DNA of 64,000 nt, taken from NCBI GenBank assembly GCA_026707405.1, contig JAPOWW010000007.1:83749-147748 (forward strand). The letters are read 5' to 3'. The translations under genes were made by a program, and so were the position numbers. Position 1 is the stretch's first letter. Every line of letters starts with the position of its first letter. This DNA is from Chloroflexota bacterium (lineage in GTDB: Bacteria; Chloroflexota; UBA11872; VXNJ01). The notes beneath the pieces were generated by a model. It ran no database searches, had not been told where the DNA came from, and saw only the letters and a program-made list of their open reading frames with translations. Shown in pieces: positions 3,324-63,275 of this stretch.

Positions 3324-3343
3324 TCCAATTCCCCGCGACCCAA

Positions 3344-9277: not shown

Positions 9278-9648
9278 CAGCGACAGCGCGAAGAACTCGC
9301 GGCGTTAGACCTCCTTAGCTCGCCCCCCAAATACATCGCAGCCGGCTTCAGGTCATTTCCTAAGCCGCACCAGTTGCCCGAAGCCGCACAACAGGCTCGC
9401 GATCCGCAGACTCAGTTGCTGCAAACGATATGTGCCAACTAGTCACGAGATCAGCAGTTGGGTTTGCTCCAGGGATGCTGTCCTGCTCGCGCTCCCGCGC
9501 GACCTGCCTCGAAATCCGGCTTTGTGACTTCCCTTGGACGATTGATCCATGCACGACCCACTCATGCCGTCGCACAATCGCTCGGCGGCGAATTATAACC
9601 AGTGGTCCTCTAGCTGAGACACCGTTTCAATCCCGCGAAACCGGCCGC

Positions 9649-35065: not shown

Positions 35066-36517
35066 CTAGCTCGCGCCGTTGCCCGGCGTGCCCATGTAGG
35101 ACGATCCGGCCACCGACTCGGGGTATCCCCACATGCCGTGCTCGGAGATGTCGAGTCCGTCGACTTCGTGCATCCGGTCCACCCTCAAGCCAATCGTGTA
35201 CTTGATTCCGTAGAACACGATCAGGCAGGTTGCTCCGACCCAAGCCACCGTGCTGAGCGATCCGAGCGCCTGTACGCCCAGTTGGTTCAGCCCGCCGCCG
35301 TAGAAGAGGCCCGCGCTGCCTAGACCCTCGGTCAGCTCGGCCGTGCCGAAAAGACCGATCGCAAGCGTGCCCCAGATGCCGCAGACCGCGTGCACCGACA
35401 CCGCTCCCACGGGGTCGTCGACTCTCAGCCGGTCGATTCCGACTACCGACAGAACCACGATCATCCCCGCGATGAAGCCGATGACCGCCGCCGCCCACGA
35501 GTCCACGAAAGCGCAGCCGGCCGTGATCGCCACCAGTCCCGCCAGTCCACCGTTGCCCAGCATTCCGACGTCGGGCTTTCGATAGACGATCCGCGAGATC
35601 ACCAGCGCGCCTACCACGCCCGCCGCCGCCGCCAGGTTGGTCGTAAGCACGATCGAGGCGAAGTCCACGCCCGCGGCCTTCAGCGTGCTCCCGGCGTTGA
35701 ATCCCAGCCATCCGAACCACAGCACCAAGACCCCGGCGATAGCCAGCGGCATGCTGTGCCCGGGAATGACTCTGATCCTGCCGTTCGTGTACTTGCCCAC
35801 TCTGGGACCCACGACTATCGCGCCCACCAGCGCGGCCACCCCGCCTACCGTGTGGACAACGGTCGATCCCGCAAAGTCAAGGAATCCGAGGTCCGCCAGC
35901 CAGCCGCCGCCCCACACCCAGTGGCCGACCACCGGATAAATAAAGGCGGTCAGCACGACCACGTACACGAGATACCCTGTGAATCTGGTCCTCTCCGCCA
36001 CCGCGCCCGAGACTATCGTCGCCGCCGTCGCGGCGAAAACGACCTGGAAGAACCACTTTGTCGATATGCTCACCCCGGCCCAGTCGAGCGACGAAAACGA
36101 GCTCGCCGCATCCGCGTCGGTCACCGACAGGAACCATCCGCTGTGGCCCAAAAACGGGTTACCGTCCCCGAACATGAACGGAAACCCGACCGCCCAGTAG
36201 GCGATCATGCCTACGGCGATGTTCATCATGTTCTTGGCGCAGATGTTCGCCGCGTTCTTCATCCGCGTAAACCCGGCCTCCAGCATCGTGAAGCCCAGGT
36301 GCATCAGGAACACGAGCGCCCCCGCGACCACTACCCACAGGGTGTCCACGGCCTGCTCTATGTCGGTCAGCGTCAACTCGCTCGCGCCCGCCGCCGCCGG
36401 CACCAGCAGCCCCGCGATCACCGCGCCCGCCAGCGCGGCCAGCCACCGTTTCGGCGCGATCCGCGGCACGGCCGATAGTCTCATTAGCGGACTCAGGTTG
36501 AATCCGGTCGTTTTCAA
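35066..36517 (-). CDS. amt: ammonium transporter (Amt/MEP family)
   Basis: A signal peptide and 11 TM helices with the Amt signature region (FLMHLGFTMLEAGFTRMKNAANI). Translationally coupled to glnK upstream (4-nt overlap). Confidence 0.9.
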   Translation of the reverse strand: MKTTGFNLSPLMRLSAVPRIAPKRWLAALAGAVIAGLLVPAAAGASELTLTDIEQAVDTLWVVVAGALVFLMHLGFTMLEAGFTRMKNAANICAKNMMNIAVGMIAYWAVGFPFMFGDGNPFLGHSGWFLSVTDADAASSFSSLDWAGVSISTKWFFQVVFAATAATIVSGAVAERTRFTGYLVYVVVLTAFIYPVVGHWVWGGGWLADLGFLDFAGSTVVHTVGGVAALVGAIVVGPRVGKYTNGRIRVIPGHSMPLAIAGVLVLWFGWLGFNAGSTLKAAGVDFASIVLTTNLAAAAGVVGALVISRIVYRKPDVGMLGNGGLAGLVAITAGCAFVDSWAAAVIGFIAGMIVVLSVVGIDRLRVDDPVGAVSVHAVCGIWGTLAIGLFGTAELTEGLGSAGLFYGGGLNQLGVQALGSLSTVAWVGATCLIVFYGIKYTIGLRVDRMHEVDGLDISEHGMWGYPESVAGSSYMGTPGNGAS

Positions 36518-36852
36518 AGTGCGTCCTGTCCTTTTTGCTGAGTTCGAATTCGTACTGCGTCTTCGACGGGGATGACGAATATCTTTCCGTCGCCCACCTC
36601 GCCAGTTACGGCGTTTTCACAGATCACGGAGATGACTTTCTCCACGCTCGCGTCATCTACCACGAGCTCCATCTTGACCTTCGGCCGAAACATGATCGCC
36701 GCTCTCACGCCCCGGTAGCTCTCGGTGTAGCCCCGTTGCGTGCCCGCGCCTCTCACTTCGCTGATCGTCAGTCCGTGGAACCCCGCCTTGTCCAGCGCGT
36801 CCCGAACTCGCTCCAGCATCTCGCGCCTGATAATGGCCTCCACTTTTTTCAT
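36514..36852 (-). CDS. glnK: PII nitrogen regulatory protein
   Basis: 112-aa PII fold (MKKVEAIIRREMLERVRDAL...GDGKIFV). Conserved glnK-amt gene order. Confidence 0.9.
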   Translation of the reverse strand: MKKVEAIIRREMLERVRDALDKAGFHGLTISEVRGAGTQRGYTESYRGVRAAIMFRPKVKMELVVDDASVEKVISVICENAVTGEVGDGKIFVIPVEDAVRIRTQQKGQDAL

Positions 36853-37672
36853 CTACCCGGCAAAATCCTTTCTCCATTTGGCGCGCCGATACACGTCCCG
36901 AAATAGCTGAGTGCGCACCAACATTGAGGGTCTGCTCCGCTGCGGTTGGCTTTGTCGGGCCTGCGAGGCCCGTGTTTCCCCTTCCCGGGGTCTGGGAGGG
37001 CCGGCGTTGGCCCATGTGAATGCGTCAAAGACGCGTGTGGCGCTGGATATTGCGCGCGGCCCGAAGGCCTCCCGGCGGTTTGGAAACTACGCAGTTCCAG
37101 TGCCGGCCGCGCTCACAACGAGGCGTCATAGCTTTCCAGCGACGGCGAAGTCTAGTTCACCCCAAGCCCAACGTCAAAAAGCTTGGCAATCGTTTACCTG
37201 ACACACCAAGGGGTGATTGAAAACGGTGGGACGGGTCGGAGAGGTGGGAAGATTAGATTAGGTCAGGCAGGTTAGAAACGGTGAGACAGCAGGAAAAACG
37301 ATCCTTGCTGAGCGGTTGCAGGCCGATGGGCCGAGTTTAGCTTGGTCAATTTGGTTTTTAGACTAGCTCCGGAAGTCGTCCCCAATCCAATTTCACGGTA
37401 GCAACTCTAAACTCAAAAAATCCAACCAACTCGGTGAAAAGGTCAACCCCCTCAGGCTTAGCGAACTCATGGTGAAGCCGTTGTCATCACCGCGCTGAAT
37501 TGTACTTTCGAGAGCCGCGGCCATAGCTTCAATTGAGATCTGTCGTGGTGCTGCAAGCTTATTTTCGATTCCATTTGTTGCCGTGATTGCAGCAAGAGCC
37601 TCTTCAGCAGGTTCTATGGTGATAGGCTCCGGTGATTGTGGGCGATGGCGTAGAGTGTGAGACAATGCGTGT

Positions 37673-37903
37673 ATGGGAAACGAGTTGCTTGTTATCTCAA
37701 TCCTTGGGCCAATAGCTATCCTCTTTGGCACTCTCTACACATTGCTCCGTAAAGACATCGGCAAGATTGGTGAGAGGGTTGGCGAGGTAGAGAAGGATAT
37801 CGCGCGAGTGCAGGGTGCTAAAGATCAGGAAAAATTGCAGATTGACCGAGAAACCCGAGACGCCCTTAGGGAATCGCGTGGGATATTCAGGCGGCCAGCT
37901 TAG
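37673..37903 (+). CDS. hypothetical small protein with an N-terminal TM helix and a charged coiled-coil tail (low-GC island)
   Basis: 76-aa ORF in an AT-richer tract. It has a hydrophobic N-terminus, LLVISILGPIAILFGTLYTLL. Confidence 0.3.
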   Translation: MGNELLVISILGPIAILFGTLYTLLRKDIGKIGERVGEVEKDIARVQGAKDQEKLQIDRETRDALRESRGIFRRPA

Positions 37904-37906
37904 GTT

Positions 37907-38203
37907 ATGTTAGACAAAGAGCTAATACAAGACCAAGAATTGCGCGAGCGGATTACGAAGTATTTTAATGAAGCAGAGCCGCGAGCGTTTTTCCTCGGCT
38001 TTATCCTCGCGAGGCTTGTAGACAGCACTCATATAGAAGCTCTCAAGAGTGACTTGAGAACGCTTGAGAGGCTGAGTCACAACTGGGCCGAAGGGGGGGA
38101 AGCTGTACACGCTATTCATACTCTCGGAACGATACTTCACTTACGCTTGCCATCAGAAAATTCTGACCAAACCCCACCACCAAAGCCTGTGAAACAAGGG
38201 TAG
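37907..38203 (+). CDS. hypothetical protein (low-GC island)
   Basis: 98-aa ORF starting 4 nt after the previous stop. Its codon usage is distinct from the flanking high-GC genes. Confidence 0.3.
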   Translation: MLDKELIQDQELRERITKYFNEAEPRAFFLGFILARLVDSTHIEALKSDLRTLERLSHNWAEGGEAVHAIHTLGTILHLRLPSENSDQTPPPKPVKQG

Positions 38204-38638
38204 TTCGCGTAGTAGGTGCGGATGACACTGCGTGTCGCGGTGACTTATTACGTGCGTCACCCATCGCGACGCGGTGTATATCTGAAGCATGAATGAGACG
38301 AGTACTGCCCCAAGAGTCGCAAGACTAGAGGGCGTGATGCAAGTGCTTCTCGACAATCACTTGCCACACATTACCCGCGACATCACATAGATTAAGTACA
38401 CCGTCATATCTACCCTGCCTTGCTTGCCGTTATCGGTGGTCTGGCAACGATTGTCTATCACTTGAGTTAATCAAAGGCAATTAGCGTATTAGGTGCCGGA
38501 TTGTCGCCTTTTTCATTTTTCGTAACCATCAATAGGGTCTTACGGTTATAGCTTCGCCGCGCAAAAAACCCGATCTACCGCACCGATCAATGCGACTCAA
38601 TTACGGCGTATCAGTTTGAGGGACGATCTGACCGCTGG

Positions 38639-39133
38639 TTAGTGGCGATCCGCTGTTGCCGCCGTATTTTCCACCACTAGTGCATTGACGTGGCGGCCGT
38701 CCAGCAAATACACGTCAGCCAGCAGCCGCCCGAAGCTATCCCGCCCATTTGCCTTGTCGGTGATCTCTAACCGGACCGTCTGTCCTTCCACCAGGGAGGC
38801 GTTGTAGGCCGTGGCTTCCACCCCGCCTTCTTCGTCCCGCTCTGGCGCCCACACGTCCAGATAGCGGACCTTCTCACGATGCCCGCGATAGGTGACCTCG
38901 ACGGTATCTCCGTCTATGACGCGTGTGACCGGCACGACGTTGCGCTCGTCTTGGACCGCCTGTAGCTCCGACTCGATTGCGTCCAAGCGGGCATGGAATC
39001 GAGCTTCTGAGTTTCGGAGTTCCTGCTCAAGTTCGGCAGCGGTGCAGGCGGTCGCGACAATAAGCAGGATCGCGACTGCCAGAACTGGTAGCCTGATCGG
39101 TTTCCCAAGCGCGTTCAAACAGTGACGCCGCAC
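38639..39133 (-). CDS. secreted thermonuclease (staphylococcal-nuclease/SNase-like)
   Basis: A signal peptide/anchor (LPVLAVAILLIVATA) and a coiled-coil segment are followed by the SNase core (VIDGDTVEVTYRGHREKVRYLDVWAPE...GRLLADVY). Confidence 0.72.
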   Translation of the reverse strand: MRRHCLNALGKPIRLPVLAVAILLIVATACTAAELEQELRNSEARFHARLDAIESELQAVQDERNVVPVTRVIDGDTVEVTYRGHREKVRYLDVWAPERDEEGGVEATAYNASLVEGQTVRLEITDKANGRDSFGRLLADVYLLDGRHVNALVVENTAATADRH

Positions 39134-39894
39134 ATCCGCGCAGCCCTTCTTACTGGATGCTCGCTATCCACGTACGGCGCAAGATGGAAGTCGGCAGACA
39201 GGCCGTGCTCCGGCAAGTTTACGGTCAGTCCCGAAGCGAGCATGAAGGTCTGCGCGTACAGCGTAGCCTTGTGGGTGTCGAGAGGATTGATTATCACGGC
39301 TACGACAGTCTCGCCACGGAATGGTGTCTCACCGCCGAACCACGAGTCGGTGACCAGATCGGCGTGACCGTGGTAACGGAAACGGACCTCCGTAGCTCTG
39401 AATTCGCCCAAAGAGAGTTGAGGCACGTCTGCGCCAGTCCACAACACACCGATAAGGAGCTCACCGTCTGAGCAGAGAACTGCTAAGAATGCTGATCCAT
39501 CTGGTCTGCTTGACTCAACGATAGTGCCGGTATCGTCCTCAATCCACGACTTCGCGTTCGCAGGCTGAACCGGCGTCGAACTGGTCGTATCGAGCGCCCA
39601 CGCGAAAGCGCCGCGCACGTCGTTGCGGTGGTCGTTGCGACAGGCTTCTTCTGCTTCCGGCCCATATCCGAACACCCGCTGGTAAATGCCGACATTGTGG
39701 TCGTTACCGAGCCAGCTTTCGAACGCGTCGTTCGCCCCGACGCACGTAGTAGGCCACTGTGCCTGTACTACTGTGACAGTAGCTGCGGTGACTAATCCAA
39801 CGACTAGCCCAGCTAAAGCAAGACGCTTGATCTGTGACAACAAGGCGACCCTCCCAACGGCGAGGAAATCTCGTTGCCACACAAGACCATGCAA
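39115..39894 (-). CDS. membrane-anchored protein carrying a fourth copy of the uncharacterised WPTxC...NDHRNDV domain
   Basis: An N-terminal anchor (LVVGLVTAATVTVV) is followed by QWPTTCVGANDAFESWLGNDHNVGIYQRVFGYGPEAEEACRNDHRNDVRGAFAWAL. The C-terminal 150 aa have no recognisable family. Confidence 0.6.
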   Translation of the reverse strand: MHGLVWQRDFLAVGRVALLSQIKRLALAGLVVGLVTAATVTVVQAQWPTTCVGANDAFESWLGNDHNVGIYQRVFGYGPEAEEACRNDHRNDVRGAFAWALDTTSSTPVQPANAKSWIEDDTGTIVESSRPDGSAFLAVLCSDGELLIGVLWTGADVPQLSLGEFRATEVRFRYHGHADLVTDSWFGGETPFRGETVVAVIINPLDTHKATLYAQTFMLASGLTVNLPEHGLSADFHLAPYVDSEHPVRRAARMCGVTV

Positions 39895-40107
39895 GCCACG
39901 GGAGGGTCATATAGCCCCGCCAGATGGCTTGCACACCTTGAATTGATGGCGGTCTTGTGTGGCGAACCCAGTCTATCACCGGTTGGGAGCGCCTCCGGTT
40001 GCCAAGCATCAAATTCAGTTCGGTTGACGTTCGGTAATATAATGACCACGGTACCCAAATCGTGTTTTAATTATGTTAATTGGCCTTAAGGCGGAGGGGA
40101 TAAGGTC

Positions 40108-40656
40108 GTGGCGAATGCTAATGATGTTGCGGCGTACATAGTCGAGAATTGCAAATATGACTTAACCGGAGTGAAGCTCCAGAAACTCGTGTACTACAGC
40201 TACGCATGGCATCTTGTTTGGGATGAAGAACGCCTGTTCATGGAGCCGATTGAAGCATGGGCTTTAGGCCCTGTTGTACGTGCGGTTTATCGGAATCACC
40301 GCCAAGAGTCTGACGAAATAGAGGGTTGGCCGCACGGCGATTCCATGAGGTTGACGGAGAACGAACGGGACAGCATTGACGAAGTGCTCGAAGAATACAG
40401 TGAACTAGGGCCTTTCGAGTTAAGCGACATATCTCACGAAGAACCACCTTGGATAAACGCCAGAGGCAATACGCCTGCAGGTAGACCCTCCAACGCGCGA
40501 ATCGCCGACAGAGAGATACAGGATTACTACAGCGGTGTCTATGACGTAGAGGCCCATGACGCCGCTCTAGCACGAGCAAATGAGGAGAGTCTGAAGACAG
40601 GACTGGTCGGTAGGCAGGCAGTAGTGGATACTCTCAATTGCTTGGATGGAAGTTAA
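40108..40656 (+). CDS. Panacea-domain (DUF4065, SocA/GepA-like) putative antitoxin
   Basis: The N-terminal region KLQKLVYYSYAWHLVWDEERLFMEPIEAWALGPVV matches the DUF4065 core. It overlaps the downstream RelE-like ORF by 11 nt. Confidence 0.6.
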   Translation: MANANDVAAYIVENCKYDLTGVKLQKLVYYSYAWHLVWDEERLFMEPIEAWALGPVVRAVYRNHRQESDEIEGWPHGDSMRLTENERDSIDEVLEEYSELGPFELSDISHEEPPWINARGNTPAGRPSNARIADREIQDYYSGVYDVEAHDAALARANEESLKTGLVGRQAVVDTLNCLDGS

Positions 40657-40903
40657 GTTCACGAGCGGCTTTCAAAGTGATCTCAAGAAGCTCCGTGAAC
40701 CAGACATCGCCAATAGCGTGCATGGCGTTATTCAGAGAATTGAATCAGCGCCAACGAGGCGAGAAATGCCTCGCTTCAAAAAGCTAAAGGGCACAGACAA
40801 TGCCTATCGAATTAGAGTGAGTGGGTTTCGGCTGGTTTTTGATCTGACGGATGAAGTAGTCACGTTAACGGCGTTTCGTCCGCGCGACCATGTGTATAGC
40901 TGA
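40646..40903 (+). CDS. RelE/ParE-superfamily toxin-like protein
   Basis: 85 aa with the pattern ...LKKL...KKLKGTDNAYRIRVSGFRLVFDLTDEVVTLTAFRPRDHVY, resembling RelE (R/Y-rich C-terminal catalytic region). Confidence 0.55.
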   Translation: MEVKFTSGFQSDLKKLREPDIANSVHGVIQRIESAPTRREMPRFKKLKGTDNAYRIRVSGFRLVFDLTDEVVTLTAFRPRDHVYS

Positions 40904-40915
40904 ACATTTCTAGGG

Positions 40916-41098
40916 ATGGAAACAGTGAAAAAGTTTGCATATCGTGTCGAAGGTGCATCGGGCTGGTTTCATGTCACTGCGGATAGAGTGGAAAACTACT
41001 CAGCCAACGTCAACACTATTGCCCTGCGGTTCTATCGTGACGATAGAGTAGTTGAAGAAGCTGTGGGCGTAATAGTATGGCGCGAGGTGGACAACTAA
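40916..41098 (+). CDS. hypothetical small protein
   Basis: 60-aa ORF in the island with no recognisable motifs. Confidence 0.2.
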   Translation: METVKKFAYRVEGASGWFHVTADRVENYSANVNTIALRFYRDDRVVEEAVGVIVWREVDN

Positions 41099-41340
41099 CC
41101 TTCTCCCCTATCTGACTCTACTTTTCAACCTCACCTACCTAAAACCGCCCCCTTTCATCCCTTCTTCTCTAACCTCTAGGGTCTGCTAAGAGCATTATTG
41201 CCAAAACGTCGATTCCCCCACCCCATCAAACACCCCAGTCCAACTCCCGCTATCCTTGACCGGCTCCCGAATTCCTACGCTTCGTGACATCCGGATCCGC
41301 CGGATTGACCGGAGCGGCCAGACAACGGACATCGCCGCTA

Positions 41341-42807
41341 ATGCCCGACCCACGCCCCAACATCATCCTCATAATCACCGACCAGCAGCGCTACGACACC
41401 ATAGGCGCGCTCGGCTTCCCCCACGTCGACACGCCCAACCTCGACCGGCTCGTTCGGGAAGGCGTCAGCTTCAGCCATTGCTTCATTAACGCCCCCTCGT
41501 GCGGACCGGCCCGCGCCAGTCTCTTCACCGGGTATTCGCCCCACAACCACGGAGCCCAGCGCAACAACGATCCCTGGCCCCGCACCTGGGTAGAGTCCTT
41601 GCGCGATTCCGGCTATCACTGCGTCAACATCGGCAAGATGCACGCCGACCCCTACGGCGGCAGGCACGGATTCCACGAGCGCCAAGTCGTCGAGAACAAG
41701 CAGCGCCGCGCCGCCGAGGTCCAGTGGGCCGGCAACCGCCACGTATTCAACGACGAGCTCGACAAGGCCCTCTGGGCGAGAGGGCACACCCGCCTCGAAA
41801 AAGACTATTTCCGCACCCTGCCCGAGTTCGAGACCAGTCTCGGCGCCTACGACTGGCACCTCGAAGACGATCTGCATCCCGATTTCTTCGTCGGCGATCT
41901 CGCGCTGCGCTGGCTCGCCCAGGCCCCGCCGATGGACGACGAGCCGCTATTCCTCCAGATCGGATTCCCCGGCCCGCACCCTCCTTACGATCCCATCAGG
42001 CGGTACGTCGAGCCGTATATGGACCGCGATCTGCCGGTACTGCCGGTCACTCAGGAGGAGATGGACGCCCAGCCCGAGGCCGTCAAGGCACTCCGCGACA
42101 CGCACGTGCGGCGCGACGCCGACTCCGTCGCCTTCCGTCCGGACGCCCCCATGAGCCGCCGCCATCGCCAGCGCGCCTACTACCTCGCCAACATGACGAT
42201 GATCGACGAAAAGGTCGGCCAGATTCTCGACGCGCTCGAAGACCGGGGACAGTTGCATAACTCAGTCGTGATCTTCACTTCCGACCACGGCGACTGCCTC
42301 GGCGACCACGGCCTCAGCCAGAAATGGAACATGTACGACGCCTCGGTCCGCGTGCCGCTCATCTTCTGGTCGCCGGGCCGGTTCGAGGGCGGACGCACCA
42401 TCGACAGCCTGCAGCAGCTATTCGACGCCGGCCCCACCATTCTCGAGCTGGCCGGCATCGAGCCCCCCGAGGGCTTCGAAGCCGTGTCGCTGCTCCCCGA
42501 TTTGGAAGGCCGCGAAAACCCGTCCCCACGGGAGTACGTCTACTCCGAGCACGCCCGCGACACCGTCAACGAAGGCGTCGAGTTCGAGATGATGATTCGT
42601 AGTAAGGAATGGAAGCTCGTCGAGTTCTTCGACCCCTCGGGCGGTCAGCTCTTCGATCTCGTCAACGACCCCGACGAGCTGAACGACCTCTGGAACGACC
42701 CCGCGCACGACGCAATCAGGCAGCAGCTTCGCGAAATCATGCATACCTGGTTCGTGACCAGCGCCACCAGGGCCGCCGGCTGGCGCAACGAACCCCGCTA
42801 CGGCTGA
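41341..42807 (+). CDS. sulfatase (formylglycine-dependent arylsulfatase family)
   Basis: Metal-ligand start IILIITDQQRYD and the C-x-P-x-R FGly motif (PSCGPARAS). The C-terminal sulfatase domain is conserved (SDHGD). Confidence 0.85.
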   Translation: MPDPRPNIILIITDQQRYDTIGALGFPHVDTPNLDRLVREGVSFSHCFINAPSCGPARASLFTGYSPHNHGAQRNNDPWPRTWVESLRDSGYHCVNIGKMHADPYGGRHGFHERQVVENKQRRAAEVQWAGNRHVFNDELDKALWARGHTRLEKDYFRTLPEFETSLGAYDWHLEDDLHPDFFVGDLALRWLAQAPPMDDEPLFLQIGFPGPHPPYDPIRRYVEPYMDRDLPVLPVTQEEMDAQPEAVKALRDTHVRRDADSVAFRPDAPMSRRHRQRAYYLANMTMIDEKVGQILDALEDRGQLHNSVVIFTSDHGDCLGDHGLSQKWNMYDASVRVPLIFWSPGRFEGGRTIDSLQQLFDAGPTILELAGIEPPEGFEAVSLLPDLEGRENPSPREYVYSEHARDTVNEGVEFEMMIRSKEWKLVEFFDPSGGQLFDLVNDPDELNDLWNDPAHDAIRQQLREIMHTWFVTSATRAAGWRNEPRYG

Positions 42808-42913
42808 CATCCTACTGCTCCGCCGCCCGGACCGTCCCTCGGTGCGACCGGCCTGAAACACAGCCCGACCTGTCGAAAATCAAGCCCTCGGACGCCGCCT
42901 CGCGGTCTGGGCG

Positions 42914-43345
42914 CTAGACGGTTTGCGGAGGCTCGCTTTCCGGCCGTTCGGTTTCCCGAATTCTCGACTCCTCACGAATGCGCGGTCGCTCGAGGATCGC
43001 GGACGCATGAGCGTCGTGGCGGCTGACCACCGTCGCCTCTAGCAGCAGCGCAACTTCGTCTTCCACGATCTGAGCCTCTACGGGCGTCAGATCGTGCGTC
43101 ATTACCTGGATCCTTGCGCGCTTGGAGTTTCGGTAGATCGTCACTTTGACTGGGGCGAGCGTGCTACCGCGAATCGGAGACTCGAATGGAATCGTCCCGT
43201 CCCATTGGCGAACCGCGCTCGACTCGGCGGTCCGTTGCAAATCGGGCATCCGGGTCTTGAGCTTTTCTTCCATGCGGTCCAGCAACGCGGGAACTATCGT
43301 CGTCGCCGCCACCGCAATCGCCGCAATGCAGAAGATGCAGGGCAT
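42914..43345 (-). CDS. small membrane-anchored partner protein of the upstream tandem-AAA+ ATPase (conserved unknown C-terminal domain)
   Basis: The ATG overlaps the TGA of the 891-aa ATPase gene (TGATG). An N-terminal TM (MPCIFCIAAIAVAATTIVPALL) is present. The C-terminal region (..ARIQV..VSRHD..) is homologous to ORF 59169-59579. Confidence 0.55.
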   Translation of the reverse strand: MPCIFCIAAIAVAATTIVPALLDRMEEKLKTRMPDLQRTAESSAVRQWDGTIPFESPIRGSTLAPVKVTIYRNSKRARIQVMTHDLTPVEAQIVEDEVALLLEATVVSRHDAHASAILERPRIREESRIRETERPESEPPQTV

Positions 43346-46020
43346 CAGACCAGCCTCGGTGAGCGCGCCGCGAACGCGCTCTCGAAGTCGTTCGGCCCCA
43401 CGACCACCTCCCGGCCTTGCGGCGTCCGCATCAGCGCCTGGATCGCCGCCTCCTGGCAAAGCGCCCTGATGTCGGCTCCGCTCAACCCCTCTGTTTCGTC
43501 GGTCAATGTCACGGGATCGAACCCCTCCCTAAGCGGCATCTTCGAAGAAAACATCTCCAGTAGCGCTGCGCGATTGCCCGCGTCCGGCAGGCCGACTTCG
43601 ATCTGCCGCCCCAGCCGGCCGCCGCGAAGCAAAGCCTCATCGATCATGTGCCTGCGGTTGGTCGCTCCCAAAACGAAGATCCCCGGACCGCTCCCTAGTC
43701 CATCGATCTCCTGCAGCAGTTGGTTGACCACTTGATCCATACTTGAGCCAAAGGCGCTCATTCCGCCCCTGCTCGGCGCTATCGCGTCGATTTCGTCCAG
43801 AAAGATTATCGACGGCCGGTGCTCCCGGGCGCGCGAGAATAGCCGCTCGACGTTTCGTTGCGACTGCCCCAGCCACTTCGAGACGATATCCGAACCCGTA
43901 ACCGGATAGAAGCTGCACTTGGCCTCCGCTGCCAGCACGCGCGCGATCATGGTTTTTCCCGTTCCTGGGGGACCGTAGAGCAACGCCCCGCTCGGCGGTG
44001 CGATTCCAAGTTGACGAGCGCGCTCGCTGTCCTCGATGAGCTTTTGAAGCTCCTGGAGTTCCCGCTTCGTGTGTTCCGGGAGAATCAGGCTGTCCCAACT
44101 CCACGATTCAGAGCTTGGACGGTCCTTGCCGCCCCGCCCCCTGGTGGTCGCTTCAAGCAGCTCTTGCGTTATCTCGCTCGTCTCGCTCCCCGCCCGCAAG
44201 TCGGCCAGCACGTTCAGCGCCGAGGTGTTCACGATGTCCGCTATCGCCGCCGCCGACAGCCCTTCCGCGAGTCTCGCCAGCTCGTCCACGTCGATATCTT
44301 CCGCCGTGGGCCGGCCCGATAGCTGCGCCTCGAAAATGGATGCCCGCGCCGCGCTGTCTGGCATATCGACCCTGATTCGCCTGTCGAATCTACCCGGTCG
44401 TATGACCGCGGGATCGAGCTGGTCGAAGTGGTTAGTCGCCGCGACGACGATAACCTCCGGACTGTCCCGCACGCCTTCAAGGCTCCGCAGCAGTTGCGTC
44501 AGCGATCGAAGATCGTCGCTCGACCCGGGCGTGTCGTCCCGGCGAGTCCCTATGGCGTCGAACTCGTCGAAGAACATGATGACCGGGACGTTAGCTCTGG
44601 CTATGTCGAAAGCGCGTGCGATCTTCTTGGCTGACTCACCGCGAAAGGAGCTTGTGAGCTCAACGCTGCCCAGCGACAGGAAGTTGCAGCCGTACTCTCC
44701 CGCCGCGGCCTTGGCCAGGAACGTCTTCCCCGTGCCCGGCGGCCCGAACAGCAGGATGCCGTTGAATGCCACCTTGAGCTCCAGCGCCTCGCCCGGAAAG
44801 GCCAGGACAAGACCCACGGTATCCCGAAGCTGCTGCTTGACCGATTCCATCCCTCCAACGTCGTCGAGCGTCGGACACTCGAAGGGCGGGACGACTTTGA
44901 AGTCTTCGTCAGCGCTGGCCGCGACGGTCGGAGCAGCCATCGTCGGAGCGCCCCCCGTCCGCGCTGGCGCTTGAGTTACGGGCGGGCTGGGCGGCGGCGC
45001 GGTTGGGACACTCGATGCGCGGGGCGGCGGCTCCAACCCAATCGCGGGCTTGGGCGCGCCCGCCGTCGCCGGTTCCGCCGCTGGTGGCATTATCGACGCT
45101 GCCGGCTCTGCCCCGTCCTCGATTTGCGTGAGCCGCGCGCCGCTGGGACGCAGCAGCCGCCATCCGTACAACCACGCCAGCGCCGAACCGCCGCCAATGA
45201 TCATGAGTGCGGCAAATGACGCCGAATCGCCCCCGCCAGCGGCGGCCCCTAAAACGACGAAAAGGCCGATAACCGCAAGATATGCGGCAATACATCGATA
45301 CGTCCAGAGCCACCGTTGGTGGCGATTCCATCCCGGCGCGACCCATATCAACACGCTTCCGATCACGGTTGCGCAGGCGACGCTGACAATCGGTCTGGCC
45401 GCGAAGACAGCTTTTACGCCTCCGCGCGGTTCGCGTCGCGCCAGTTTGCCGCGCACCTGACTACTCGGTGCCCATCGCATCACCGCCAAGAGGATTCCCA
45501 GCAGCGCGAAGAAGCCCGTCGCCCAGTCCTCGAACGCCTTTACAAATCCGATATGAGGCCAGGCACCTAACGGCTTGATCCGGTCGGTATCTCTAACCAT
45601 CCTGAGCGATTGGCCGTCGAGGACTAATACGCCCACAACCATCTCGGAGTCAGTCAATGAATACAGCACCCAAACGGGTCCCCCGACGGCGTCTTGCACG
45701 TCCACCCCCGCCAAAGTCCGCGACTTGTAGGACGGCCTCGCTTCCCAGACCGCGTCCAGGACTCTCTGGGGTATCGCGTCGTCTTTCAAGTTCGCGTGCG
45801 CGAGATCGCCGGGACCTTCCGATGGGAAACCCGGATTGCGCAGAAAATAGACTGCGGCGGCCACGTAGGCCGCAAGCACCACGAGCCCCAACAGCATGTA
45901 GCCGCGCTTCAGGCGGCTATGCCGTTCGACCGGGTTCAGGCTCTCGTCCCCGGCTAGAAGGTTACGAACGGGGAACGATGTCCCGCTGAAACTCTGGCTC
46001 TCCGTTTCCATGTCCCGCAA
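43345..46020 (-). CDS. membrane-anchored tandem-AAA+ ATPase (two classic-clade AAA domains; CDC48/SpoVK-like)
   Basis: An N-terminal ~300 aa with ~5 TM helices and a ~100-aa loop is followed by a Pro/Ala-rich linker. D1 carries Walker A FGPPGTGKT and Walker B FFDEFDA; D2 carries YGPPGTGKT and IFLDEIDA. An SWSWD...LQELQKLIED inter-domain motif is shared with the 59576-61339 paralog. Confidence 0.8.
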   Translation of the reverse strand: MRDMETESQSFSGTSFPVRNLLAGDESLNPVERHSRLKRGYMLLGLVVLAAYVAAAVYFLRNPGFPSEGPGDLAHANLKDDAIPQRVLDAVWEARPSYKSRTLAGVDVQDAVGGPVWVLYSLTDSEMVVGVLVLDGQSLRMVRDTDRIKPLGAWPHIGFVKAFEDWATGFFALLGILLAVMRWAPSSQVRGKLARREPRGGVKAVFAARPIVSVACATVIGSVLIWVAPGWNRHQRWLWTYRCIAAYLAVIGLFVVLGAAAGGGDSASFAALMIIGGGSALAWLYGWRLLRPSGARLTQIEDGAEPAASIMPPAAEPATAGAPKPAIGLEPPPRASSVPTAPPPSPPVTQAPARTGGAPTMAAPTVAASADEDFKVVPPFECPTLDDVGGMESVKQQLRDTVGLVLAFPGEALELKVAFNGILLFGPPGTGKTFLAKAAAGEYGCNFLSLGSVELTSSFRGESAKKIARAFDIARANVPVIMFFDEFDAIGTRRDDTPGSSDDLRSLTQLLRSLEGVRDSPEVIVVAATNHFDQLDPAVIRPGRFDRRIRVDMPDSAARASIFEAQLSGRPTAEDIDVDELARLAEGLSAAAIADIVNTSALNVLADLRAGSETSEITQELLEATTRGRGGKDRPSSESWSWDSLILPEHTKRELQELQKLIEDSERARQLGIAPPSGALLYGPPGTGKTMIARVLAAEAKCSFYPVTGSDIVSKWLGQSQRNVERLFSRAREHRPSIIFLDEIDAIAPSRGGMSAFGSSMDQVVNQLLQEIDGLGSGPGIFVLGATNRRHMIDEALLRGGRLGRQIEVGLPDAGNRAALLEMFSSKMPLREGFDPVTLTDETEGLSGADIRALCQEAAIQALMRTPQGREVVVGPNDFESAFAARSPRLV

Positions 46021-46075
46021 CCATGTCTACGCCGAAAACATACGGCTATAGGTTAGAGCAACCCGCTGCCCTGCG

Positions 46076-46152
46076 CCGTTCTCACTTATTCATCGTGAAC
46101 TTGCCGAAAACCGCTCATCCTGAGCTTGTCGAAGGGTCGAACGATGAACAGC
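46076..46152. repeat. dispersed palindromic intergenic repeat, copy B
   Basis: Contains ...gctcatcctgagcttgtcgaagggtcgaacgatgaac... and generates the spurious ORF 46023-46340. Confidence 0.6.
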
Positions 46153-46231
46153 GCCCAGGTCAGGCGTCTACCGAATCCGACGGAATCCGCCTCGCTCGGC
46201 AAGCGCCGTCATTTCGCCTGAAAAGTCAACC

Positions 46232-59168: not shown

Positions 59169-59579
59169 CTAGATGCCGGACAGCTCTATTTGCTCCTCGA
59201 GCACCTCGAGGCCGGGCTCGGCAGCCGGTGACTCGGAAATCTGAATACGGTCCCCGTCATGACGGCTTACCAGCTTGACGGGCAGCAGTTCGATGACGTG
59301 ATCCTCGATCGTTCTCACAGCCTTCTTATCGAGACCTCTCCCCACCACCTGAATACGCATCCGTCCGGCGTACTTGTAGAGCGTGATGATCACCGGTTCC
59401 ACCTGACTTCCGCCGCCCCCCTGGAACGCGAACCGCCCCTGCCACAACGCCACTGAATCCGAGTCGAGCGCGCGGGCCAGTCCGAACGAATTGAACTTCA
59501 GTTTCTGCTCGATCTCCTCGACCAGCCCTGCGGAAACCTCGCCATCGCCCTCGATCTTGACCAGGCTAAACACGCTCAC
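59169..59579 (-). CDS. small soluble partner protein of the upstream tandem-AAA+ ATPase (paralog of 42914-43345 C-terminal domain)
   Basis: The GTG start overlaps the ATPase TGA (GTGA). It shares ..(R)IQV.....VSRHD.. and surrounding residues with the other partner protein. No TM segment is present. Confidence 0.55.
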   Translation of the reverse strand: MSVFSLVKIEGDGEVSAGLVEEIEQKLKFNSFGLARALDSDSVALWQGRFAFQGGGGSQVEPVIITLYKYAGRMRIQVVGRGLDKKAVRTIEDHVIELLPVKLVSRHDGDRIQISESPAAEPGLEVLEEQIELSGI

Positions 59580-61339
59580 CGCGCACCCCTCCGCTGATTC
59601 CGCACCACCGCCGCTTCAAAGTCGGCGTTGCGGACCTGCGGCTCCTCGTGGTCGGCGGACCGAATCATCGCCTGAATCGCCGCTCGCTGACATAGCTCGG
59701 TAACGTCGCCTCCGCTCAATCCCTCCGTCCGCAGCGCGAGCCTGTTCGTGTCAACGTCGTCGGCCAGCGGCATGTCGCGTGTCTGGAGATCGAACAGCAG
59801 CTTGCGAAGCTCGGCCGTCGGAAGTCCGATCTCTATCTTCCTACCCAGCCGCCCTCCTCTCAGCAGCGCCGCATCGAGGATGTCCAGGCGGTTGGTCGCT
59901 CCCAGCACGAAAACGCCCGGCAGCGACTCCATCCCGTCGATCTCTTGCAAGAGCTGATTGACGACCCTGTTCATCGCTGGGTTGCTCATACCCGAGTCGC
60001 GGCTGGGCGCTATCGCGTCGATCTCATCCAGAAACACGATCGACGGTCTGTTCTCGCGGGCACGCGCAAACAGCTGCGCGATATTCTGTTCGGACTCGCC
60101 GACCCACTTCGAAATAACGTCCGATCCTTTTATAGGATAGAAACTCGCGTTGGCTTCAGCCGCCAGCACCTTGGCGAGCATCGTTTTGCCGGTGCCCGGC
60201 GGCCCGTAGAGGACCGCACCGGCGGGCGCTCTGATCCCAAACGCCCTGGCGCGCTCGGGGTCTTCGATGAGCCTCGTTATCTCTTGCAGCTCCTGCTTCG
60301 TTTCCGCCGGCAGGATCACGTCGTCCCACGACCAGTCGCGCACGCTCGGCCGGTCTTGTCCACCGCTCGACTTGATCGCCCTCTCCAGCGCCGCCTGGGT
60401 TATCAGTCCGTGGTCGAAATACTCGCTCCCAGGCATCAGGGTTTCGAGTGCGCAGCGGTTCACCAATCCGGAAATGCCGCTGGCCGACATACCCTCCGAA
60501 CGTCTCCCTAGTTCATCGAAATCGACCGCTGGACCAAGTCGTCTGCCCTTGAGTTGAGTGCGGAAAATCGCCGCGCGGGCGTCCTCGTCGGGAAAGTTGA
60601 CTCGGATCAAAAGGTCGAAATGACGCGCCCGCACCACCGCCGGGTCAAGCTGGCTCAGGTCATCAGTCGCCGCCATCACTATCACGTCGTGGTCGTCGTT
60701 GACGTTTTCCAGCCCGCTCAGCAAGTGCGAAAGGAATCGGCGGGCATTCTGCCCGCGTGACGGGTTGTCGGACGGACCCGCGACCTGATCGAACTCATCG
60801 AACAGCAGCAACATCGGCGCGTTCCGCCGGGCGTAATCGAACACCTCGGCAAAAAACCGGACTGGATTCGTGAGGGAAATCAGATCGGCGCAGTCGACCT
60901 GGAGGAAGCTGGCTCCAAACTCGCCCGCGGTGGCCTGCGCTAGGAACGTCTTGCCGCTTCCGCGCGGGCCATGCAGAAGCACGCCGTTGAAGACAATCCG
61001 GCGGGCGTGAGCCTCGTCGATGAACGCCAGCAGCATTCCAACGGCGTCCCTGATCTTCTGCTTCTCGTCGGCCATTCCGCCGACGCCTGCAAACGTCGGA
61101 CAGTCCCACGGCGGAGTGGCGACCGGAGTGGGCCGGGCAGGCTCTTTGGGAGCCGCAGACCTCTCTTTGTTTCGGGGCGACCTCACTCTTTCACGGTCGT
61201 CCTTTGACCTTCCGACGCGGGATCTTGACGAGGACTCATGCGTCGGACGCGCGGCGGTTGGCGGCGGACGATCCAATCTGGAGTCGGCAGCCTGACCCTT
61301 ACCCTTACGCTTCCGCGATCGCAACCAGCCCGCCAACAT
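59576..61339 (-). CDS. tandem-AAA+ ATPase, soluble paralog with a basic, disordered N-terminus
   Basis: D1 is Walker-A-variant HGPRGSGKT with Walker B LFDEFDQ. D2 is YGPPGTGKT and VFLDEIDA. It shares the P(W/F)(D/E)CPTxxxVGGM and RDWSWDDVILP...LQEITRLIED motifs with 43345-46020. Confidence 0.8.
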   Translation of the reverse strand: MLAGWLRSRKRKGKGQAADSRLDRPPPTAARPTHESSSRSRVGRSKDDRERVRSPRNKERSAAPKEPARPTPVATPPWDCPTFAGVGGMADEKQKIRDAVGMLLAFIDEAHARRIVFNGVLLHGPRGSGKTFLAQATAGEFGASFLQVDCADLISLTNPVRFFAEVFDYARRNAPMLLLFDEFDQVAGPSDNPSRGQNARRFLSHLLSGLENVNDDHDVIVMAATDDLSQLDPAVVRARHFDLLIRVNFPDEDARAAIFRTQLKGRRLGPAVDFDELGRRSEGMSASGISGLVNRCALETLMPGSEYFDHGLITQAALERAIKSSGGQDRPSVRDWSWDDVILPAETKQELQEITRLIEDPERARAFGIRAPAGAVLYGPPGTGKTMLAKVLAAEANASFYPIKGSDVISKWVGESEQNIAQLFARARENRPSIVFLDEIDAIAPSRDSGMSNPAMNRVVNQLLQEIDGMESLPGVFVLGATNRLDILDAALLRGGRLGRKIEIGLPTAELRKLLFDLQTRDMPLADDVDTNRLALRTEGLSGGDVTELCQRAAIQAMIRSADHEEPQVRNADFEAAVVRNQRRGAR

Positions 61340-61664
61340 TCACCCCCCTGATCACGAACATGGCTCCGCGGGCGGCTAAGCGCCGTAATGCAACCCCGGC
61401 GATTACGCGCAAACGCCTTTAAACAGAATAAACCAGACACATCATAGGCAAGCGGTCAGAGGAACTTCCGCCACTTCCTCGCTCATCAAGCTCCGACACA
61501 ATCTGCCGCCTTCCTCTAGATTGGTGCCTGATTTGACTGAAACATATTGACAGAAAACAGCCCACTCCCTCACGTATACTGGCTCAGCGGAATGCCTCGA
61601 CCGGCCTCGTCTGTTCTCTACTGGGCCGGAGTTTGGGCATACGGCGGATAGAGCGAAGAACCCG

Positions 61665-62444
61665 ATGACCTACCTTCACGCTTTAACGACGATATTCGTC
61701 CTGCATTTTCGGGGCAACGCGAATCTGTGGATCGTCTTTGGCGTTTCCCTCAGCATTGTGCCCCTTATCGCTGTCATCACCTGGATAACCACGCAGAGCC
61801 CGGATTCGCAGCCGATAGCGTACATATCGGTCGGCGTGATTCTCATGGCGATGTGGCAGACCTGCGTCTTTTTTTCAGGCCGGTCGTTGGCGTCGGAATT
61901 CTATGAGGGAACGGTCGACTACACGATGGTTTCGCGCATTCCGCTAAGGGTCGTGATGCTGGTCAAATCGGTAGCGACTCTGGCCATAGCTATTCCCAGT
62001 TCTCTAATCGCCTTTGCCACGGTCCAGATTGTTTCCAGGGAGCTGATCGACGTGGAGCGGCCGCTGTTCCTGCTAGTCTCGATGTTGGTCGCCGCCTGGA
62101 GCATCACCGTGGTCGGCTACTTGTTCGCCCCGCTATTCGTGCTGGTGCAGGGGCGCGGAGGTTTCTTCAATGCCTTCCAACCCCTTGGTATCGTCCTGAG
62201 CGGATTCCTCTATCCAATTTCGCAGCTCTCTGATGAAGTTCAGATCGTCGCGCGCTTGCTGCCTACTTCTTGGGCGATGGACAGTGTTACCCGTTCGATA
62301 GAGCCTGGAGAATCTCTCGTCAGGATTTACGCCGACTGGGGAGCGGCGCTGGGAGTGTCTGTCGTGATGCTGGCGGCAACGCTGTTCATGTTCAGCAAGG
62401 TTGAAAACACGCTGCGGCGGAATGGAAACGTCGGTAGGTTCTGA
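61665..62444 (+). CDS. ABC-2 family transporter permease
   Basis: 259-aa polytopic membrane protein of ABC-2 topology. Part of a permease-permease-ATPase cluster. Confidence 0.68.
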   Translation: MTYLHALTTIFVLHFRGNANLWIVFGVSLSIVPLIAVITWITTQSPDSQPIAYISVGVILMAMWQTCVFFSGRSLASEFYEGTVDYTMVSRIPLRVVMLVKSVATLAIAIPSSLIAFATVQIVSRELIDVERPLFLLVSMLVAAWSITVVGYLFAPLFVLVQGRGGFFNAFQPLGIVLSGFLYPISQLSDEVQIVARLLPTSWAMDSVTRSIEPGESLVRIYADWGAALGVSVVMLAATLFMFSKVENTLRRNGNVGRF

Positions 62445-63240
62445 AGTGGCGGCGGCTCTACACAACATCGCCCTGCAGGCCTACTACTCGTACAAAGGCC
62501 TGTTCCTGTGGCTGAACTGGACGGCATACATCTCCAACGTCTTCATCGCCCCTGTTGTGTTCGTCGTAATTGTCACTCTGACCGGCAGGTTCGCGGGGCA
62601 GTCGGACTCGGCAAATGCCTACATCATCGGAATGGCCGCATATGCGATACCCGCGATTCTCTCCGGGGGCATTCTGCAGTCCTTCTGCTACGAGCGGACA
62701 TTCGGGACCCTCTCGCTCATATACGCCTCTCGGTCGAACCGGTGGGTCACCTACTGGAGTAAGGGGCTCTTGCACTATCCCAACGGTCTGCTCGCCGCCG
62801 CAACGTCGCTGCTCTTCGGGTGGTTGCTGCTCGATCTGGACTTTTCCAGGCTCAACTGGCCCGCTCTTGTCGTCCTGCTCCTGGTGATCTCCTTTTCCTG
62901 CCTGTGTCTCTGCCTGTTCGTGGGCAATTTTTCGATCGCCTTGCGCGAGTGGATCATCCCGGTCGGCATCACCAACGGACTTCTGCTTATCACGTCAGGC
63001 GTGGTGGTCCCCGTCGACCAGTTGCCGGGGTTTCTCGGAGAGATAGGTCGAGTCGTGCCCCTGACGCATGGACTTTCCGCGCTTCGGGAAGCCTTCGAGG
63101 GAGCCAGTTTGGGAGACTTGGTTGACGACATCGTCTACGAGCTGGTGGTTGGCCTCTGCTATCTACTCGCTGGCGGATTTCTGTTTAGCCTGCTAGAGGC
63201 CAACGCGAAGCGGACAGGGACCTACGAAAGCGCGATCTAG
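62401..63240 (+). CDS. ABC-2 family transporter permease
   Basis: 279-aa polytopic membrane protein overlapping the previous permease gene. Confidence 0.68.
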   Translation: MKTRCGGMETSVGSEVAAALHNIALQAYYSYKGLFLWLNWTAYISNVFIAPVVFVVIVTLTGRFAGQSDSANAYIIGMAAYAIPAILSGGILQSFCYERTFGTLSLIYASRSNRWVTYWSKGLLHYPNGLLAAATSLLFGWLLLDLDFSRLNWPALVVLLLVISFSCLCLCLFVGNFSIALREWIIPVGITNGLLLITSGVVVPVDQLPGFLGEIGRVVPLTHGLSALREAFEGASLGDLVDDIVYELVVGLCYLLAGGFLFSLLEANAKRTGTYESAI

Positions 63241-63275
63241 GATGACTTGCTCTCGGCCATGAGAGAAGATTTGCT

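Follow-up and report, generated by a model that had tools for sequence, protein, structure and literature searches.

In this study, we analyzed a 64-kb window of DNA (64,000 nucleotides of contig JAPOWW010000007.1, Chloroflexota bacterium assembly GCA_026707405.1), in which a P-II/glnK gene and a sulfatase gene are separated by an island of lower GC content. The inserted island occupies positions 37182-41216 (4035 bp, 52.7% GC), as defined by blastn breakpoints against five of its relatives (L005 and L008-L011) and by the junction sequences; its right edge could lie further left, at 41201 or 41208, according to the reading of the repeat located there. The initial annotation placed a lower-GC island at 36900-41260, and an island is indeed present there, although its true edges are 37182 and approximately 41208-41216, and the stretch 36900-37181, which was counted as a part of it, turned out to be the native, conserved leader and promoter of glnK. 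We consider it very probable that the region 37182-41216 is a recently acquired mosaic islet, carrying a PanA-type toxin-antitoxin module, in a sponge-type Chloroflexota; this high confidence refers to the acquired mosaic islet with its PanA-type module and not to the mechanism of insertion. The flanks and the three blocks of the island are as follows:

36514-36852, minus strand: P-II/glnK gene (Pfam)
37149-37177, minus strand: native glnK-amt promoter-like site (promoter scan), with a -35 box TTGACG at 37172-37177 and a -10 box TAGACT at 37149-37154
37182-38638: block 1 (GC 0.498), about 490 bp without a convincing gene, plus the orphan genes p76 and p98
38639-39894, minus strand: block 2 (GC 0.59), a two-gene operon, with the gene of a WPTxC protein first and that of a nuclease second
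39895-41216: block 3 (GC 0.50), a toxin-antitoxin operon
41256-41261, plus strand: TTGACC, within GCTATCCTTGACC, a block conserved among the relatives (junctions of L005 and L008-L011)
from 41284 or 41341, plus strand: sulfatase gene (Pfam)

The GC content of the island (0.527) differs strongly from that of the remaining window (0.620; z = -9.3), and none of 519 equal-sized windows placed elsewhere was as low (minimum 0.594). In 1-kb windows the GC content was 0.49-0.58 over positions 37000-41500 vs. 0.61-0.66 on either side, and at 200-nt resolution two troughs were distinguished (37200-38600 and 39900-41200, each of about 0.47-0.52), with a shoulder of 0.57-0.63 between them. The GC content at third codon positions (GC3) was 0.46-0.55 for the genes of both low-GC blocks, 0.68 for the nuclease gene and 0.63 for the WPTxC protein gene, while the core genes of the window showed values of 0.71-0.85. 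Moreover, the GC skew is positive in both low-GC blocks and negative almost everywhere else in the window. Thus, the drop in GC and the deviant codon usage described in the initial annotation were both confirmed, and the GC profile that it proposed as a check revealed a significant deviation. The island is a mosaic of three blocks and not one uniform unit; block 2 resembles cargo from the gene pool of sponge symbionts, and blocks 1 and 3 look as if they came from lower-GC sources.

An exact-sequence look-up of the GlnK protein returned contigs of two kinds, i.e., those of the same strain (99.98-100% identical) and that of a 93%-identical relative (L005). Same-strain contigs L001-L003 cover both junctions of the island, and the left one is also covered by contigs L004, L006, and L007, which come from other run accessions. 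Within L005, the nucleotide corresponding to window position 37181 is joined to that corresponding to 41217 via only 11 bp, and the island is absent; the divergence of this contig reflects substitutions and not long-read errors, as 242 mismatches were found vs. 16 gap positions. The scan of species-representative genomes with the sulfatase protein revealed orthologous loci in five Chloroflexota metagenome-assembled genomes (MAGs), L008-L012 (sulfatase protein identity of 97, 89, 88, 80, and 76%, respectively), and in all five glnK-amt adjoins the sulfatase gene without the island. The six relatives lacking the island span about 72-93% DNA identity, and what they carry between the two genes ranges in length from 11 bp to 1.4 kb: a filler of 16 bp in L008, an unrelated spacer of about 180 bp in L009-L011, and an ADP-ribosylglycohydrolase gene of native GC (PF03747, 2e-67) in L012. 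In the loci of L008-L012 no relatives of the island proteins were found, with the exception of the WPTxC domain.

A single gain in the lineage of the window is indicated, because otherwise six independent and precise losses would be needed, and we regard it as very likely that the island was acquired after the split from sister lineages that are 91-93% identical. The empty-site comparison suggested in the initial annotation gave adjacent glnK and sulfatase genes, without the island, in 6 of 6 relatives, and the horizontal acquisition that it proposed is supported both by these six empty sites and by the GC deviation. A lower identity of the flanks to L005 and L008 next to the island was not seen, so there is no sign that the island was delivered together with divergent flanks by homologous recombination. 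The sequences of the junctions and empty sites are given below (the slash marks the point of insertion):

left junction: ...AACGTCAAAAAG / CTTGGCAATCG...
right junction: ...ATTATTGCCAAAACG / TCGATTCCCCCACCCC...
L005 empty site: ...GCGTCAAAAAG ATCGATCGTGT CCCACCCC...
reconstructed empty site: ...GTCAAAAAG / TCGATTCC...

On the sense strand of glnK, the promoter-like site reads TTGACG-17-TAGACT, and neither hexamer varies among the window, L005, and L008-L011. The left edge of the island is located 4 bp upstream of this -35 box. At the other end, the TTGACC motif and the surrounding GCTATCCTTGACC block presumably represent the sulfatase promoter and belong to the native right flank. As judged from these sequences, the island fills the only non-conserved stretch between the predicted, divergent promoters of glnK-amt and of the sulfatase gene.

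The leader of about 290 nt located between the glnK promoter and the glnK start codon (36853-37148, minus strand) shows 80% mean column identity in six genomes, and its conservation across the window, L005, and L008-L011 equals that of coding DNA. The predicted fold of this leader is long (-89.8 kcal/mol, 89 pairs), with a compensatory change in only eight pairs, and no Rfam match was found for it. Possibly, this stretch acts as a regulatory RNA leader of glnK-amtB that has so far not been described. Another observation concerns the most distant relative, L012, in which the ADP-ribosylglycohydrolase (DraG-like) gene of native GC (8876-9847, minus strand) lies between glnK and the sulfatase gene. 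Systems composed of DraG, GlnK, and AmtB are known, and the DraG-like protein of L012 is therefore a plausible functional partner of GlnK/AmtB.

Block 3 contains the following features:

40018-40033, plus strand: GTTCGGTTGACGTTCG, an upstream element in common with a cassette on contig L089 (L089 sequence, alignment)
40108-40656, plus strand: PanA, an antitoxin of 182 amino acids (aa) with a Panacea/DUF4065 domain (Pfam SocA_Panacea, PF13274; 66.5 bits vs. a cut-off of 25.7)
40646-40903, plus strand: toxin of the RelE/ParE superfamily, 85 aa (Pfam ParE_toxin; 27.3 bits vs. a cut-off of 23)
40916-41098, plus strand: p60, an orphan open reading frame (ORF) of 60 aa, with coding-like GC content at the three codon positions (GC1/GC2/GC3), called on one public contig

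These two Pfam matches uphold the pair of a DUF4065 antitoxin and a RelE-like toxin reported in the initial annotation. The antitoxin also matches phrog_1281 (4e-37) and has 2025 homologues. The toxin gene is co-directional with that of the antitoxin and overlaps it by 11 nt; its product matches phrog_1213, a RelE-like toxin (3e-10), and among the solved structures RelE3 (3bpq) and E. coli RelE were its best, though weak, matches (E 0.004-0.08), while the score with the TIGR RelE_StbE family (18.9 bits) was under the cut-off of that family. A C-terminal R..H.Y motif was noticed by eye only. On the basis of the weak structural matches we lean toward a RelE/ParE fold that is nearer to RelE. The p60 ORF is possibly the third gene of the operon; no family match was found for it in Pfam, PHROG, NCBIfam, or PADLOC, its cluster at 90% identity contains only itself, and it is missing from the L089 cassette. 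PADLOC gave no hit for PanA or the toxin either.

The closest relative of PanA, protein P0119 (73% identity, the same length), is encoded on contig L089 in a quite different neighborhood, composed of PhyH, YjbQ, LexA, HD, and RidA genes. Downstream of it on L089 lies a gene for a protein related to the toxin of the island (43% protein identity), and over the cassette the GC content drops from about 0.62 to 0.47-0.50. In this cassette, the only close relative of that of the island, the antitoxin is intact and the reading frame of the toxin (4644-4884) is broken near codon 12; it may be an inactivated toxin or an assembly error. The 16-nt upstream element GTTCGGTTGACGTTCG, which may be a promoter or an operator, is shared by both cassettes, and a comparable pyrimidine-rich tail follows the toxin gene on L089, the similarity of the tails being not significant (p about 0.10). 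Judging from L089, the toxin-antitoxin cassette recurs as a pair in another genomic context. Fifteen exact matches of the 16-mer upstream element in viral contigs were rejected as chance, since no island protein was encoded nearby.

A C-terminal extension of about 35 aa is common only to PanA and P0119. In 39 further metagenomic PanA loci the identity was at most 51% over the full Panacea domain, and four partial metagenomic matches reached 55-67% over short N-terminal stretches. This toxin was not found beside any of the 39 loci, the partners being different. Viral contigs encoded nothing closely related to PanA, p98, or the toxin, and look-ups of the exact RidA and toxin proteins led to the same strain only. 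According to published data, Panacea antitoxins swap partners, ParE-type toxins are among the listed ones, and the antitoxin-first gene order is the commoner (PMC8832971); the differing partners of the close PanA relatives fit this known partner swapping. As in the PanAT systems (Kurata et al. 2022, PMC8832971), the gene for the Panacea-domain protein lies directly upstream of, and overlaps, a small toxin gene, the fold of the toxin (ParE/RelE) is listed among those of PanA partners, and close relatives are paired with unrelated partners. The differences are the antitoxin extension of about 35 aa and the possible 60-aa third gene. The Panacea domain, the overlapping partner with a toxin fold, and the conservation of the pair on L089 assign this putative module to the PanAT family. 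By analogy with that family, the pair would act as a direct-binding type II module and would keep the islet in the genome, through addiction or phage defense. It is also worth mentioning that toxin-antitoxin systems are enriched in MAGs associated with sponges (PMC8163846).

The operon of block 2 consists of two genes:

38639-39133, minus strand: nuclease of the staphylococcal nuclease (SNase) fold, 164 aa (Pfam SNase, PF00565; 28.5 bits vs. a cut-off of 21)
39115-39840 (longest ORF to 39894), minus strand: p259/p241, a WPTxC protein (ORF list, public gene calls)

The start of the nuclease gene overlaps the end of the p259/p241 gene by 19 nt, and this arrangement identifies the two as a predicted translationally coupled operon. 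The nuclease matches phrog_452, an endonuclease (1e-15), and the Staphylococcus aureus nuclease (5e-12), the latter over aligned residues 14-100 only; likewise, the Pfam match covers only positions 1-75 of the 107 of the profile. As in the staphylococcal (thermo)nuclease family, the core of the OB-fold with IDGDT (D21) and the equivalents of R35, E43, and R87 is kept, and an N-terminal export signal is present. In contrast to staphylococcal nuclease, the protein ends at a position equivalent to about SNase residue 105-110 and lacks the final third of the fold, and in the calcium site RLLLVDTPE is replaced by RYLDVWAPE, which puts W and A in place of D40 and T41, respectively. The N-terminus, read from the sequence, is charged and is followed by a hydrophobic helix and a cysteine (..IVATAC), which suggests that the enzyme is probably exported and membrane-anchored or lipoprotein-like. 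Therefore, of the secreted SNase-like thermonuclease described in the initial annotation, the fold is retained, scoring above the Pfam cut-off, and the complete domain with the full set of residues is not. The only single-protein match of the nuclease in PADLOC was C3a212, and no complete PADLOC defense system was found.

The p259 protein, a member of a gene family common in this lineage, begins with a signal or transmembrane helix, which marks it as a predicted exported protein; the WPTxC domain and an alpha/beta domain make up the rest, and the C-terminus reads HPVRR..CG. No match of p259/p241 was found in Pfam, PHROG, or NCBIfam, and the WPTxC domain noted in the initial annotation is indeed present there. 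In the AlphaFold (AF2) model of p259 (predicted local distance difference test score, pLDDT, of 75), the WPTxC domain is helical and confidently predicted, the C-terminal domain is of the alpha/beta type, and no fold match to the model was found in PDB. The WPTxC domain comprises about 57 aa with two cysteines (WPTTCV..ND....LGN..NVGIYQ..FG...E..C.NDHR.DV...F.WA), follows a signal peptide, and is absent from Pfam; no paper using this name was found. Within the window it is encoded at three places:

3506-4885, plus strand: two WPTxC domains, then PD40 repeats
5127-5726, plus strand: WPTxC domain
39571-39765, minus strand: WPTxC domain of p259

Elsewhere, WPTxC domains are fused with ankyrin, LRR, RCC1, PD40, DPPIV propellers, trypsin-like proteases, cytochrome c, as well as SNase and Excalibur. 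The full HMMER scan of 1.84 billion cluster representatives revealed the domain in 266 of them (55-75% identity, often in tandem), and secreted proteins of sponge symbionts seem to use it as a niche-specific module. The C-terminal HPVRR..CG domain is also present in full-length relatives of p259; one of them is encoded near GroEL in the L008 genome, and others, on metagenomic contigs, adjoin a phage-type integrase, or a DDE transposase and a restriction-modification gene. In the WPTxC-SNase-Excalibur proteins of sponge MAGs (P0078 and P0082) the two parts are fused, whereas in the island each has a gene of its own, the two genes being translationally coupled. More original leads than the islet itself may lie in the family of WPTxC domains and in the conserved leader of glnK.

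Two side observations concern this family. The L008 genome (locus L088, 8001-9819) contains, between groEL and the gene of a PD40 protein, two additional members of the WPTxC family (252 and 304 aa) that the window lacks (3323-3506), and the family is therefore variable between close relatives. In addition, P0078 and P0082, both of 264 aa, are one residue apart and are labeled as coming from a Rhodospirillaceae MAG and a Chloroflexota MAG, so that their near-identity reflects either a very recent cross-phylum transfer or mis-binning.

The features of block 1 are as follows:

37673-37903, plus strand: p76, an orphan ORF of 76 aa (ORF list; called in public assemblies)
37907-38203, plus strand: p98, an orphan ORF of 98 aa
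38204-38638: an AT-richer non-coding gap of 435 bp between the convergent p98 and nuclease genes

The p76 protein has an N-terminal hydrophobic helix and a charged helical tail, and GC1 exceeds GC2 in its gene, which is typical of coding sequences. Pfam, PHROG, and NCBIfam gave no match for p76, its 90%-identity cluster contains only itself, and its marginal PADLOC hit (E 0.005) was the sole one among the island ORFs without a family. The p98 protein found only itself among 5.8 billion proteins and had no match in Pfam, PHROG, NCBIfam, or PADLOC. With 76-, 98-, and 60-aa ORFs lacking a match in Pfam, PHROG, and NCBIfam, the content of small and orphan ORFs reported in the initial annotation was corroborated. 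In the gap at 38204-38638 we found no Pfam remnant (six-frame pieces) and no Rfam match, and a structured RNA in that gap was rejected, its folding z-score being -1.0. A 112-aa ORF at 37393-37731 (minus strand) was also discarded as non-coding, having no family match, about equal GC1 and GC2, and no call in public assemblies. Short-read contigs L004, L006, and L153, assembled from several runs, end inside block 1, at 37970-38072, which could result from low coverage of AT-richer DNA or from heterogeneity of the population.

At the ends of the island the following repeats and tracts were distinguished:

37175-37181: CAAAAAG, the 7 bp that end the native left flank and form the left-hand copy of a 6/7 direct repeat (empty sites of L005 and L008)
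37183-37190, plus strand: TTGGCAAT, the left one of two copies of a perfect 8-bp inverted repeat at the termini
37200-37298, plus strand: purine-rich left arm, about 75% purine, with G much commoner than C
37221-37232 and 37276-37287: AAACGGTGGGAC and AAACGGTGAGAC, respectively, a left-arm direct repeat of 12-13 nt (repeat family D14)
39996-40007, minus strand: GCTTGGCAACCG, third copy of the terminal motif, with an 11/12 match to the left terminus (repeat I11)
41091-41187, plus strand: pyrimidine-rich right arm, 75% pyrimidine, 35 C vs. 6 G
41197-41204, minus strand: TTGGCAAT, right copy of the 8-bp terminal inverted repeat
41202-41208: CAAAACG, right copy of the 6/7 direct repeat

In the 64 kb the octamer TTGGCAAT has just two copies, one at each end of the island in inverted orientation; for a random 4-kb segment the probability of such an inverted repeat within 40 nt of both ends is 0.012-0.023. 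The empirical p for the direct repeat CAAAAAG/CAAAACG is 0.039, and its right copy may be a target duplication or microhomology. The purine and pyrimidine tract sequences quoted in the initial annotation were found at their coordinates and are outliers in composition (the left one, 75% purine over 52 nt, belongs to the top 0.2% of windows, and the right one, 75% pyrimidine over 85 nt, is the only such region in the 64 kb). They were regarded there as the edges of the island, whereas they sit 20-120 bp inside its ends. When the left arm (first 110-125 nt) was aligned globally, anchored at the ends, to the reverse-complemented right arm, the score exceeded that of dinucleotide shuffles, with z = 2.0-2.8 and p = 0.007-0.03 for ends taken from the empty sites and z = 3.2-4.0 for ends set at the octamer, a choice that was made post hoc. 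The best-matching segments, TTAGGTCAGGCAGGTTAGAAACGGTGAGACAG and TTAGGTAGGTGAGGTTGAAAAGTAGAGTCAG, each start about 75 nt from their ends. The imperfect inverted boundary repeats that had been suspected thus gain moderate support at most, which comes from the end-anchored alignment and from the 8-bp repeat and not from the local alignment of the arms (see below).

The third copy of the terminal motif, GCTTGGCAACCG, is located at the boundary of the nuclease and toxin-antitoxin blocks and, by estimate, is not significant alone; three of the five TTGGCAA heptamers of the window fall in the island, the third at 39999-40005. The search for long terminal or direct repeats in 36850-41300 returned only short pairs at chance level, no att-like direct repeat of at least 10 bp was found at the junctions, and the fixed-spacing motif AACCTNNNCTNACCTAA gave no matches. 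The GAAACGGTGRGAC repeat is present in the left arm only. A 17-nt pair (36920/41171) was rejected as an end repeat, its left copy lying 260 bp outside the island. Read outward, the arms are C-rich and G-poor, lie downstream of the outermost genes, and point at the host promoters; no intrinsic terminator was predicted in them, and they may be Rho-type terminators that insulate these promoters.

The searches for mobility functions agreed with the initial annotation, which had reported the absence of integrase, transposase, and tRNA. Neither tRNA nor tmRNA genes were found in the 64-kb window, Pfam, PHROG, and NCBIfam gave no integrase or transposase hit in the island, and six-frame pieces of its non-coding stretches contained no remnants of such genes. 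No Rfam family was found in the window at gathering scores, nor in 36800-41300 at E<=1, and the plasmid and phage collections gave no DNA match to the island.

Small genomic islands and islets are known to have atypical GC content and codon usage, to be absent from the same site in close relatives, and to carry toxin-antitoxin, nuclease, and orphan genes, and all of these features are shared by the island described here. Unlike classical genomic islands, it has no tRNA target, integrase, or long direct repeats. Mobile insertion cassettes (MICs) and other non-autonomous derivatives of transposons carry passenger genes without a transposase between inverted-repeat ends. The island resembles MICs in this arrangement and differs from them in that only 8 bp of its ends are perfect, the arms are merely about 55-60% alike, and no clean target duplication, second copy, or matching insertion sequence was found.

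The following scenario may be proposed. The islet, apparently without a mobility gene of its own, was very probably inserted in the short unconstrained spacer between the divergent promoters of glnK-amt and the sulfatase gene, both of which were left intact. As to how it moved, we tentatively favor, with less than even confidence, a non-autonomous cassette with imperfect inverted arms of about 110 bp capped by TTGGCAAT, which would have been mobilized in trans. Several points weigh against such a cassette. The statistics of the ends are post hoc, with p of only about 0.01-0.04 each, and when the arms were aligned locally (Smith-Waterman) their similarity did not reach significance (p about 0.15; p 0.09-0.15 over the local tests, those with the L089 tail included). 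Neither the window nor 152 fetched loci (1.9 Mb) contained the ends or arms a second time, no clean target duplication can be placed directly beside the octamer, and no cognate transposase is known. Furthermore, with the differing GC content of the three blocks, the islet may have been assembled in several steps and not have come as one cassette. Two other reservations concern the contents of the islet: the nuclease, in which the last third of the SNase fold is missing and the calcium ligand D40 is replaced, may be inactive, and the role of the arms as terminators is conjectural. A rather unlikely, though possible, alternative is the microhomology-mediated illegitimate integration of a foreign DNA fragment (phage, plasmid, or transformed DNA), the end repeats being chance or microhomology. 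The absence of a mobility gene, tRNA, or gene remnant would agree with it, as would the 6/7-bp CAAAA[A/C]G being the only junction repeat, the lack of other copies of the ends, and the location of the site in the sole unconstrained gap between the promoters, expected if selection filters random insertions; however, neither the 8-bp perfect terminal inverted repeat (p about 0.01-0.02) nor the collinear similarity of the arms over about 110 nt (p 0.007-0.03) would be expected from random breakage. Still less likely is a decayed or satellite integrative element whose tyrosine or serine recombinase was lost or is encoded elsewhere, with the arm motifs as recombinase or arm-type sites, since neither an integrase or its remnant, nor a tRNA/tmRNA target, nor an att-like repeat of at least 10 bp was found, even though the sub-terminal repeats of the left arm (D14), the relatives of p259 directly beside phage-type integrases in metagenomic contigs, and the mosaic, cargo-like content all speak for it.

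Each of these insertion mechanisms is compatible with a stepwise build at a local hotspot by two or more insertions, to which we give about the same, limited credence as to illegitimate integration. Such a history would account for three blocks with distinct GC and GC3, the toxin-antitoxin cassette standing alone on L089, the third copy of the terminal motif exactly at a block boundary (39996-40007), the spacer of 11 bp to 1.4 kb among the relatives, and a second presence/absence block beyond the sulfatase gene (42806-46230); against it, no contig contained an intermediate with only some of the blocks, and the third motif copy is not significant alone. That the region is ancestral and was deleted in the relatives is a logical possibility only and a very improbable one: deletions are seen nearby (the window and L008 have the AAA block, L005 does not), yet six independent precise losses over 72-93% identity, with spacers differing in sequence, would have to be assumed, the GC, GC3, and GC skew of the island are foreign to the genome, and p98 is without a relative anywhere (5.8 billion proteins). 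A chimera of assembly or binning is hardly credible at all. The sequence does come from a MAG, and contigs L004 and L006 break inside the island near 37970-38072, but separate ENA, NCBI, and Logan assemblies run across both junctions with 99.98-100% identity, and the left one is also crossed by contigs from two other run accessions.

Neither the gene content of the acquired islet nor the kind of event is unusual among bacterial flexible genomes. Its relevance lies in the nucleotide resolution of a recent gene gain in an uncultured sponge symbiont, with the insertion point placed within a few bases and the empty site seen in six relatives, and it illustrates the movement of toxin-antitoxin modules and lineage-typical exported proteins through the sponge microbiome. 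If the inverted arms are functional ends, they would represent an unrecognized way of moving cargo without a resident transposase or integrase. One may even speculate, at long odds, that the islet is the first recognized member of a family of transposase-less cassettes in sponge-symbiont Chloroflexota, with purine-rich arms of about 110 bp and TTGGCAAT caps; if so, such cassettes, moved in trans, would shuttle toxin-antitoxin and exported WPTxC-family cargo between symbiont genomes.

Two further regions of the window deserve mention. On the other side of the sulfatase gene, the second presence/absence block (42806-46230), of normal GC, encodes an 891-aa double-AAA+ ATPase with an N-terminal membrane region and an ORF of 143/181 aa without a family match. 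The ATPase is IetA-like in PADLOC (7e-83), yet it falls under the NCBIfam IteA cut-off, and it has a paralogue of 587 aa at 59576-61339. The window and L008 carry this block, and L005 and L009-L012 lack it; in L005 and L009, read at the nucleotide level, the stop codons of the sulfatase and RidA genes are 27-270 bp apart, and in L011-L012 the gap is wider. Finally, a milder GC dip (0.56-0.59) with a strongly negative AT skew was observed at 61500-63300, where it coincides with two genes for ABC-2-type permeases and is likely caused by the composition of membrane proteins.

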